Part shown: piece after piece, positions 14,067 to 15,208 of the stretch
How the letters are laid out: the number at the start of each line of letters is the position of its first letter
Numbering within the stretch: position 1 is the stretch's first letter
Notes under the pieces: model-generated
What the model was told of the DNA's origin: nothing
Database searches by the model: none
Seen by the model: only the letters and a program-made list of their open reading frames with translations
IMG/VR virus record: IMGVR_UViG_3300037424_000570
Span: 1-46,359 of that record
DNA: 46,359 nucleotides
Reading direction: 5' to 3' (one strand)
Source of the DNA: a virus
Taxonomy: Duplodnaviria; Caudoviricetes
Position numbers and translations under genes: made by a program

Positions 14067-14480
14067 ATGACCGAGAACATGAGCGTAACCGAGATTGAAC
14101 GAGCAGCAGCAACCCTACTCAGCAAGACCGTAGTTTGGGATCCCGCAGTCGAGAGCTGGATCGAGCGCCTGTTAGCAGATCCAAGCCTCATTGAGTACTG
14201 CCCGGAGGGGCACCACCCCAACAGCGCATCATATGAGATGAAATTTGATTGGAACGATCCATCCCTGGGCGACAAACTTCCTCGCCGTCAGGCACGCCTG
14301 ATCTGCCAGGCAGTCTGCAACTTGGGTTACTCACTCGTTGCGTACCGGGACGACGGCAGGCCAACTGGAGATGTGATGCACTCCATCGGCAGTGGCCTCG
14401 CAGTAACAACCAGTCTGGCGGCAGCAGTTGTTGAGTTCCACCTGGCAGTCCTGAACGCGGCCTACCTGGAGCAATCATGA
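14067..14480 (+). CDS. Hypothetical early protein (137 aa)
   Basis: GAGGAG RBS, downstream of a consensus promoter. Confidence 0.7.
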   Translation: MTENMSVTEIERAAATLLSKTVVWDPAVESWIERLLADPSLIEYCPEGHHPNSASYEMKFDWNDPSLGDKLPRRQARLICQAVCNLGYSLVAYRDDGRPTGDVMHSIGSGLAVTTSLAAAVVEFHLAVLNAAYLEQS

Positions 14481-14890
14481 CCAGCCACACTCGCACCCCC
14501 GAGGCTAACCGCAAAGCGAACGCCGCCCGCCGTTCCCGCCTCACCCAGGCGGCGCAGGCAGCGGGATACGGAAGCATAGACCAACTAGCGCAGGCAATTT
14601 TGAGAGGAGAGATTGAAATGAGTACAAACTATGGCAAGGTGATTTACCAGGGCAAGACCTACAAGCTTTACAACCAGGCCGAACTGACAAACCGTGTGTT
14701 CCCCGGTTGGTGGGGTGATGCCGAGAAAGGCGAGTCATACACCGCTGAGTGGGCAGCCGATGCCGCCGACGAGCAGGGGCAGGATTGCAAGGTTGTCTGG
14801 CAGTGGCAGGAGATCAAGGGCGAGGAGCTGGAAGACGCTGGCAACTACCCCTGGGATGACGATCAAGTAGATCGTATAGTCGAGCAATAA
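14477..14890 (+). CDS. Hypothetical protein; second in-frame start at 14618
   Basis: ATGA overlap at 14477; internal GAGGAG RBS before MSTNYGKVIY. Confidence 0.7.
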   Translation: MTSHTRTPEANRKANAARRSRLTQAAQAAGYGSIDQLAQAILRGEIEMSTNYGKVIYQGKTYKLYNQAELTNRVFPGWWGDAEKGESYTAEWAADAADEQGQDCKVVWQWQEIKGEELEDAGNYPWDDDQVDRIVEQ

Positions 14891-14914: not shown

Positions 14915-14986
14915 CCGGCTGCCTCTGCGACCCTGCAAGCAGCCGGTTGCCGTTTAACGCAAGAGCCGCCAGATTAGTGGCGGCTC
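14915..14986. terminator. Two hairpins between convergent transcripts
   Basis: CCGGCTGC/GCAGCCGG (14915-14946) and GAGCCGCC/GGCGGCTC (14963-14986), the latter followed by TTGCGTT on the minus strand. Confidence 0.55.
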
Positions 14987-15000
14987 CGTGTTCCTACAAT

Positions 15001-15172
15001 GTCGATGGCAAGGGGAGTGGGCCGACTGGTAGCCAGTTATTCTCCGAGAAGGGCTACTCCGCGCAACTCCGTGAGGAGTTTCGGGGCGTTACTCCCTCAT
15101 CAGGCGCCAAGCCTCGGATCAGATGCTGCCTGCATATCGGCCCGGTGGCAGCCCACGCCCATTGCCATCGAC
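15001..15172 (-). ncRNA. Structured non-coding RNA containing a type I hammerhead ribozyme (core 15043-15118)
   Basis: Minus strand reads GCGC-CUGAUGA-GGG..CCC-GAAA-CUCC UCAC GGAG-UU-GCGC with extended stem I; enclosed by GUCGAUGGCAA/UUGCCAUCGAC. Confidence 0.85.
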
Positions 15173-15179
15173 TTGATTT

Positions 15180-15208
15180 ATTATACCACGTGCGCGTTCT
15201 TGCACGTG
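15180..15208 (-). promoter_or_regulatory. Promoter of the hammerhead RNA with overlapping inverted repeat
   Basis: TGgTATAAT (15180-15188) 7 nt upstream of the RNA 5' end; CACGTGC-N8-GCACGTG at 15187-15208. Confidence 0.7.

Follow-up and report, generated by a model that had tools for sequence, protein, structure and literature searches.

Type I hammerhead ribozymes have been described from intergenic DNA of phages and prophages (PMC3088659; Rfam RF00163 clan), and the roles that self-cleaving ribozymes play in bacteria and phages have been called largely elusive (PMC6765202). Papers are cited here by PMC number. We analyzed a complete phage record with terminal repeats (IMG/VR IMGVR_UViG_3300037424_000570, Caudoviricetes; the whole 46,359-nt stretch is called the window below). 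On its minus strand, 67 nt past the last gene of a long minus-strand run, lies an RNA gene with a hammerhead. The hammerhead itself is a new member of the known class, with the same consensus, three stems, NUH triplet, open stem I and phage intergenic site. Compared with the phage hammerheads described in the accessible text of PMC3088659, it is an optional module in a larger conserved RNA, borrows bases of that RNA and occupies a single register. The larger RNA, here called the core, is a widespread phage RNA that we found in no catalog; it forms a pseudo-symmetric double pseudoknot, and the hammerhead is its optional and probable processing module.

Several other known RNAs resemble the core in part. 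ROOL and GOLLD, which often lie close to tRNA genes, are likewise protein-free phage RNAs rich in pseudoknots and without a known function (PMC5737381, PMC12286853). They are several times larger (659 nt, often more than 800 nt) than the core of about 100 nt, their Rfam models do not match it, and neither a hammerhead nor a permuted form is seen for them in the accessible text of these two papers. Theta (HDV-like) ribozymes are small double-pseudoknot RNAs abutting phage tRNA 3' ends (PMC10879173). The core differs from them in helix order and conserved bases, most of its copies do not lie beside a tRNA, and, unlike in theta ribozymes, the only recognizable catalytic core in these copies is the hammerhead. 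The HDV-type layout used for this comparison is a nested double pseudoknot that is cut at its first G. Two-piece tmRNA is processed by host tRNA-processing enzymes. The permuted tmRNA family (Rfam RF04321) and the core share continuous, nicked and permuted genes that are all opened in one dispensable linker. The core has no acceptor stem, T-loop or tag frame, and its predicted cut is made by an internal ribozyme instead of those enzymes; ARAGORN finds no gene in the window and Rfam no tmRNA match there. The c-di-AMP riboswitch aptamer has a pseudo-two-fold fold. Like the core, it consists of two related halves interlocked as a ring of helices with conserved junctions, a layout able to hold a ligand, whereas the core has no Rfam match, no expression platform and no consistent gene set behind a 5' untranslated region, and is phage-borne. 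Y RNA (YrlA) models gave no match on the core, and Ro60 lies beside one of 48 loci. The multi-copy repeats of retrozymes were not found in the 16 whole carriers.

Fold and homologues of the core RNA

The core consists of four interlocked helices in the order P2-PK1-P3-PK2, two of which (PK1 and PK2) make pseudoknots (coordinates in Table 1). In an alignment of 54 sequences, for which PK2 pairing was a selection criterion, five helices are paired in 99.6% of 1583 cells and 24 of 30 pairs show compensatory changes; slid-alignment controls gave 38 to 43% pairing. Helices that were not selected for behave in the same way: among 76 copies obtained with a 5'-flank pattern, PK2 is complete in 70, PK1 in 70 and P3 in 68. 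Of 77 copies chosen by their 5' half, 76 have GCGGA. In the wider family the Y of CGYGGA is C or U only, and PK2 is paired at 6/6 positions in all 103 distinct second-subtype matches listed. We regard this architecture as practically certain. Two helices of the initial annotation, GCUGCC/GGCAGC (P2) and UCCGA/UCGGA (P3), are real and covary. Its other two helices fail this comparison. Over the 54 homologues, only 47% of cells are paired in the GGCU/AGCC extension of stem I, and 77%, with zero compensatory change, in the ACUGG/CCAGU side hairpin; the bases of both form the two pseudoknots instead. The terminal stem exists but is shorter than the proposed 20 bp or so, with 14 pairs over 15 positions, the extra pairs belonging to P2 and PK1.

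The two halves of the core resemble each other. Each opens with CGYGG, followed by a 6-bp hairpin whose loop holds a strand of 6 to 8 nt and a short run of conserved bases; next come a short junction and then a tail. Each half's loop pairs with the opposite half's tail. Among second-subtype copies, CGUG opens both halves in 72 of 107 (85 if a variant with one extra base is counted), and Y is C or U only in either half (n = 107). A scan for a non-G base before CGGAG gave no matches. That both halves begin with CGYGG suggests a fused pseudo-dimer, and the core would have arisen by ancient duplication of one half. A central CGYG-CGYG helix could possibly form, only after hammerhead stem I lets go. 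The second subtype alters the P2 loop (GACA) yet keeps G-Y-G, and for this reason a pairing between GC of that loop and GCG was rejected. A twister-like reading of the core was weighed by eye and dropped.

Homologues were collected in several scans. A hammerhead-core pattern found 20 viral loci, 13 of them sharing the whole flanking RNA. The 3'-flank pattern, which did not require a hammerhead, found at least 119 viral loci with at least 73 distinct sequences that have a fully paired 6-bp helix, including the window and the loci of the hammerhead-core pattern. The independent 5'-flank pattern gave at least 92 distinct matches, of which 77 pair P2 and 76 of these have a 3' half. A metagenome scan targeting hammerhead-less copies added 84 loci, for a combined total of 129 distinct cores, and 103 distinct matches are listed for the second subtype, first found in phages Gaia and Constance. 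In a third, subtype-related scan 8 of 18 matches were real. The total of about 240 distinct copies is a lower bound, since three viral scans gave minimum counts. Tandem double copies of the core occur at two loci (L533 and L635; the second copy in L635 is degenerate). Matches in phage Nebkiss (L483) and at L292 were chance matches, BLAST of the window region against named phages gave short chance matches only, and an exact 30-nt pattern gave none. A loose pattern over genome contigs gave no real copies among the 120 matches listed, and a covariance model, run on 50 genomes of bacteria and archaea with only 57 candidates scored in each and no positive control, found none; absence is not implied by either.

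No Rfam 15 covariance model reaches its threshold on the core in the window and 40 loci covering all three architectures described below (E ≤ 1 or 2). The matches around the 40 loci are tRNA, tmRNA, RNase P, weak hammerheads and sub-threshold hits. A motif search of the literature returned one unrelated paper only. The motif has no match in 11 supplements of PMC3088659 or in 7 supplements of PMC10690425, and the core is not described in the accessible text of PMC10085705. No description was found in the literature covered, which did not extend to the candidate-RNA alignments of PMC10690425 (files 1 and 2) and PMC5737381. The core RNA is probably unpublished.

The hammerhead, its register and the gene architectures

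The hammerhead of the window copy lies where the initial annotation had placed it: CUGAUGA at 15103-15097, stem II at 15096-15083, GAAA at 15082-15079, stem III at 15078-15067 followed by a GUU triplet with predicted cleavage at 15065/15064, and stem I GCGC (15107-15104) paired with 15064-15061. It agrees with the type I core consensus C3 U4 G5 A6 N7 G8 A9, G12 A13 A14, A15, U16, H17 (taken from PMC3088659), and stems I, II and III are paired beside the core with stem I open. Searching the window with a full type I descriptor gives a single match, against none in 500 dinucleotide shuffles. The loose core pattern alone is at chance level (three matches against 3.5 expected), so the stems carry the hammerhead signal. 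Folding of the 241-nt region gave z = -4.9. In a first set of 69 hammerheads the stem I pair at the cut covaries (CG 44, GC 13, AU 8, UG 4), and the triplets, NUH by selection, are mostly GUC (34) or GUA (24). A possible 3-bp partner (UUR) of the UAAC loop, which could make the tertiary contact of stems I and II that speeds cleavage, is present in 11 of 25 copies with a UAAC loop and in 7 of 27 with other loops. The Rfam hammerhead models proposed as a check do not match the window copy even at E ≤ 10; homologous hammerheads score 24 to 31 bits on them, below the gathering threshold. A 22-nt group II intron sub-match (E = 0.32) coincides with stem II and was treated as chance. It was concluded that this is a genuine type I hammerhead with predicted self-cleavage.

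Three gene architectures were found. In type a, to which the window copy belongs, the gene is continuous and the hammerhead sits in the linker between P3 and GYGGA. Type b has no hammerhead and a linker as short as 4 nt, and often lies between tRNA genes. Type c is circularly permuted: it opens with the hammerhead and continues with the 3' half, a P1 that a short loop closes, and the 5' half. Of 107 parsed copies that were not chosen for hammerhead status (four further copies could not be parsed), type a accounts for 79, type b for 26 and type c for 2. Hammerheads are present in 81 of the 107, all in the same register; none is off-register, no copy has another long insert, and no other ribozyme class was found in the linker of these copies. 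Copies without the hammerhead make up 26 of these 107, and 57 of 129 in the set enriched for them. An RNA built around a hammerhead, as first described, is thus not what is conserved: the conserved entity is the double-pseudoknot core, which also occurs hammerhead-less and permuted.

The register is the same in about 150 distinct copies. The predicted cut always falls two bases before GYGGA, that is, one base before CGYGGA. Stem I pairs with the conserved CGY of the core, and its fourth pair tracks Y (A-U 53, G-C 11, G-U 8, unpaired 9). Permuted genes open at the same linker with the hammerhead first (17 intact and 1 damaged, plus 2 more in the 107-copy set). The fold, the fixed register, the sharing of CGY by stem I and core, and the dispensable linker are established by comparing the sequences. 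On the tree the hammerhead label changes at least 13 times; the tree is weak, with 91 columns, paired sites and unsettled bootstrap. The approximately unbiased (AU) test does not reject the view that the permutation arose once (p = 0.13). Repeated hammerhead loss from a hammerhead-bearing ancestor would be the simplest reading. A base pair between positions 3 and 8 has a role in the hammerhead. The hammerhead of phage Gaia has U3 and A8 together, which keeps this pair.

Some variation was seen in linkers and stems. Among medium linkers, 22 of 32 carry an anti-GYGG hairpin of at least 4 pairs against shuffle means of about 3 to 4.5, with p < 0.05 in only 2 of 32, and two subtype II linkers carry a matching CCAC change; this hairpin is suggestive only. 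Eight loci (L529, L530, L546, L554, L563, L612, L620 and L622) have long stem III inserts with a GUCA segment able, by eye, to pair with UGAC of loop II, a possible hammerhead variant with a pseudoknot between loop II and stem III. Four others (L011, L032, L044 and L072) carry an extra conserved GC-rich hairpin with a GUAAG loop in the linker before the hammerhead. Permuted genes of the enterobacterial type (L028, L043, L052, L064, L080, L095 and L136) have a leader-trailer stem of -34 to -38 kcal/mol, which would hold the cut-off hammerhead attached.

Carriers, proposed role and alternative explanations

The core is found in phages of Actinobacteria, Proteobacteria and Cyanobacteria, with Mycobacterium, Arthrobacter, Enterobacter, Pectobacterium and Microcystis among the recorded hosts. 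Mycobacterium phage Gaia and Arthrobacter phage Constance have continuous, hammerhead-bearing copies; Microcystis phage Mwe-JY26 has a hammerhead-less copy in a tRNA array; Pectobacterium phage Pappous has a permuted copy. Of 5426 E. coli genomes, 15 carry a permuted copy; in the one examined it sits in the chromosome, flanked by antiterminator Q and holin. An Acinetobacter plasmid has a permuted copy too, its hammerhead damaged. Known as BLAST matches only are Karkharias, Taid, Setonix, SDFMU_EhYP and 10 more Acinetobacter plasmids. All 16 whole carriers have a single copy; BLAST reports a second matching place in the genome of Gaia (L477). No protein family is common to more than four neighboring loci (1241 open reading frames, ORFs), and none links more than 6 of the 16 whole carriers, the one reaching 6 being terminase. 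Among the neighbors (254 ORFs, 48 loci) the labels that recur are those of terminase (8 loci), of lysis and antiterminator genes, and of methylases and HNH nucleases. Only 14 of 47 loci have a downstream ORF on the same strand within 100 nt, and neither the loci nor the window, with its converging genes, places the RNA like a riboswitch before related genes.

A tRNA gene lies within 60 nt of 27 of 51 hammerhead-less copies and 5 of 52 hammerhead-bearing ones, lineage effects being still included in this comparison. An upstream tRNA lies within 60 nt in 25 of 105 copies, and the RNA starts no more than 5 nt from the tRNA 3' end in 15 of 22 copies with an upstream tRNA. In the carrier arrays (L381, L038, L392, L405, L432, L434, L453, L457 and others, some of them related), 98 of 124 tRNA genes end at N73-C74 without a full CCA, 24 have CCA and 2 end otherwise; the N73-C74 ends suggest that processing cuts after C74. 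Some tRNA arrays with hammerhead-less copies also contain genes for RNase P RNA and tmRNA (L038:2697-3037 and L414:1102-1461).

We favor a maturation latch on a trans-acting decoy RNA, to which we give a probability of roughly 0.4. The gene would produce a compact RNA with the core closed by the terminal stem. The hammerhead would act as an accessory latch whose stem I holds the conserved CGY. Self-cleavage two bases before GYGGA would leave a 4-bp stem able to open, and the freed CGYGGA strand would dock into the core, possibly onto CGYG of the other half. The product would be a two-piece RNA with a 5'-OH on its 3' piece, equivalent to the direct product of the permuted genes. The mature core would then act in trans during lytic growth without a phage partner protein, as a decoy or sponge for something conserved across host phyla, e.g., a nucleotide signal or an RNA-binding defense factor. 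We infer that cleavage takes place in vivo, that CGYGGA is released and docks, and that the RNA acts in trans as a decoy. Scattered neighbors, single copies, and transcription with tRNA arrays or closure by P1 argue for action in trans, and conservation across host phyla without a partner gene or guide segment points to a universal ligand or to intrinsic chemistry. That the hammerhead is a processing device of the core is probable. The decoy function, argued by analogy, falls somewhat short of even odds. The earlier view of a stand-alone phage RNA whose product is a nicked but base-paired molecule, and which regulates no downstream gene, holds up. The antisense release suggested with it is not supported: no variable core segment is left unpaired in cis, and the rest of the phage, either strand counted, has no exact match longer than 10 to 11 nt. 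A bolder version of the latch and decoy appears unlikely. It sees the core as a fused-homodimer RNA class that is kept latent, with its conserved strand locked in the hammerhead stem, and armed by self-cleavage, either as a sponge for an immune signal or as a trans-acting ribozyme needing the freed 5'-OH. If true, it would be a natural ribozyme-activated RNA zymogen, and the sponge form an RNA counterpart of protein anti-defense sponges.

Several observations weigh against the latch and decoy. The window triplet is the rare GUU (4 of 69). GUU triplets cleave more slowly. In the isolated segment an alternative fold (-15.2 kcal/mol) exceeds the hammerhead fold (-12.3 kcal/mol) in stability by 2.9 kcal/mol; given the rare triplet and the competing fold, the window hammerhead may cut slowly. 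Hammerhead-less copies with linkers of 4 to 6 nt are common (21 of 129 in the enriched set, 20 of 107 in the unenriched one) and appear not to need a ribozyme. The hammerhead-less copies are rejected as one clade (AU p = 3e-7), and such frequent, polyphyletic copies imply that the nick is dispensable or made by something else. Damaged hammerheads are kept in L033, L045, L092 and L482. The evidence for CGYG-CGYG pairing is compatible C/U variation only. Contigs of two RNA runs cover an E. coli-type permuted copy (not the window copy) and give no ends; two raw-read RNA runs contained no reads. This is evidence neither way. The decoy role was picked by exclusion and analogy, with nothing positive for a specific ligand.

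We rank binding first, followed by catalysis, oligomeric structure, cis mRNA processing, a repair substrate and a selfish element. The core could itself be a new ribozyme class, trimming tRNA trailers at its own 5' edge or ligating via the freed 5'-OH. Small ribozymes resemble it in size, double-pseudoknot fold and many near-invariant junction bases, which counts for this idea. Of 22 continuous copies that have a tRNA close upstream, 12 show a gap of exactly 3 nt between its acceptor stem and CGUGG, and theta ribozymes lie with their cut at tRNA 3' ends (PMC10879173). However, the hammerhead-bearing copies are rarely beside a tRNA, as counted above, the other tRNAs of the same arrays share N73-C74 ends (98 of 124) without such an RNA behind them, a cut at this edge would, where P1 closes the RNA or the gene is permuted, lie next to a helix and yield no clear product, and no Rfam ribozyme model matches the core. 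Catalysis is rather improbable.

Lower again we place a structural role in which the pseudoknots form between molecules, giving rings or cages like those of ROOL, GOLLD or prohead RNA, with a late-infection or packaging function and a nick that relieves assembly strain. Loop-to-tail pairing of two similar halves is the geometry of a domain-swapped oligomer, and an intermolecular kissing loop of ROOL was initially taken from covariation for a tertiary contact (PMC12286853). At 8 of 48 loci, and in the window too, terminase is encoded no farther than 2.5 kb away, and tandem copies exist (L533, L635). But the packaging proteins of the carriers are unrelated beyond the terminase homology noted above, close kin can be without the RNA, as among the E. 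coli genomes, and 4-nt linkers suit an ordinary intramolecular H-type knot.

A cis-acting cassette, in which the hammerhead splits the phage transcript and the knot shields the downstream part from exonucleases, has a still smaller chance. Polycistronic processing is a standing proposal for bacterial hammerheads (PMC3088659, PMC6765202), and same-strand gene spacing is tight at L266 (15 and 14 nt, terminase and portal) and L289. The window has a terminator-like hairpin and then converging genes on the 3' side, P1 and the pseudoknots would hold both fragments together, and the copies between tRNAs have no mRNA to protect. It is improbable that the nicked RNA is a repair substrate or inducer, its cyclic-phosphate and 5'-OH ends feeding RtcB or inducing the host repair operon against tRNA-cleaving defenses. 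That operon is reportedly regulated by damaged tRNAs (PMC7790460), and RtcB lies directly 3' in L334, Ro60 about 1 kb upstream in L385 and an RlaP-like gene in L278; such neighbors are found in only 3 of 48 loci, RtcB is encoded in 4 of 50 records overall (no control set) and 1 of 21 near-complete ones, and hammerhead-less copies do not themselves produce such ends. The repair role suggested in the initial annotation is thus weakly supported. A selfish retrozyme-like element spread by reverse transcription, to which patchy distribution, unrelated contexts and circular permutation might point, is largely refuted by copy number (one in each whole carrier), and near-perfect helix upkeep and a single origin of permutation that is not rejected also make it very improbable.

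The latch and decoy would give viral hammerheads a concrete, testable role, the maturing of another RNA, with the cut setting the start of a conserved strand. The copies without a hammerhead and the permuted copies are natural controls provided by evolution. The core is small and very well conserved, crosses host phyla and has no protein partner. Copies in culturable phages Gaia (M. smegmatis) and Constance (A. globiformis), and at a late-gene position in an E. coli prophage, make genetics, probing and structure determination feasible.

The locus in the window and the ends of the RNA

The features of the window copy are listed in Table 1. The upstream neighbor is an ABA-sandwich protein gene (15640-15239, minus strand). 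On the 3' side two converging plus-strand ORFs follow the terminator-like hairpin, and then the terminase genes; as proposed earlier, no downstream gene on the same strand is regulated.

Table 1. Features of the RNA gene in the window (helix statistics from the homologue sets described in the text)
Feature	Position	Strand	Evidence or remark
Extended -10 promoter-like element TGgTATAAT, no -35	15180..15188	-	sequence; predicted start 15173-15172
P1 terminal stem, 5' arm	15158..15172	-	14 pairs with 15015-15001
Conserved CGUGG, start of half B	15153..15157	-	CGUG 103/107, CGCG 4/107 copies selected on 3' half only
P2 hairpin, 15152-15147 with 15130-15125	15125..15152	-	100% paired, 5/6 pairs compensatory
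PK1 5' strand (15143-15136) plus AUGCA, both in P2 loop		-	PK1 100% paired, 7/8 compensatory
Conserved AUCU (15124-15121) and P3 5' strand (15118-15113)	15113..15124	-	P3 100% paired, 6/6 compensatory
Type I hammerhead in P3-to-PK2 linker, GUU triplet, predicted cut 15065/15064	15061..15107	-	sequence, descriptor, covariation
Conserved CGCGGA (family CGYGGA), start of half A, freed by predicted cut	15058..15063	-	
PK2 helix, 15057-15052 with 15034-15029	15029..15057	-	6/6 pairing in 70/76 copies unselected for PK2
Between PK2 strands: P3 3' strand (15048-15043), conserved GAAUAACU (15042-15035)		-	
CA junction and PK1 3' strand (15026-15019)	15019..15028	-	8/8 pairing in 70/76 unselected copies
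P1 terminal stem, 3' arm	15001..15015	-	pairs with 5' arm
Terminator-like hairpin, weak U tail	14963..14986	-	sequence and folding

The promoter proposed for the RNA has a perfect -10 with TG extension but no -35, and the hairpin proposed as terminator has a weak U tail; the consensus scanner lists neither for these reasons. An own promoter is plausible for the window copy but not general: of 54 copies, 7 have a near-consensus -10 ahead of P1, against 5 of 216 control windows. The expected 5' fragment of 108 nt fits the predicted cut, provided that the transcript starts at 15172. In the family the RNA ends are apparently set in two ways, by long P1 closure or by tRNA adjacency: a long P1 is present in 54 of 80 copies without an upstream tRNA versus 5 of 25 with one, lineage effects being still included.

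Two CACGTG palindromes (15208-15203 and 15192-15187) are 16 nt apart; one occupies the -35 position, the other adjoins the extended -10, and both are possible regulator sites of the RNA promoter. A second strong hairpin at about 14949-14914, just past the terminator-like hairpin, probably ends the converging plus-strand ORF pair (14067-14890). A promoter-like site at 13941-13912 precedes a 99-aa ORF (13716-13417, minus strand), which directly precedes the terminase large subunit gene and which we take to resemble a terminase small subunit. Further along the minus strand, positions 9165-1510 encode a 2551-aa phage polyvalent protein with an ART-PolyVal domain.
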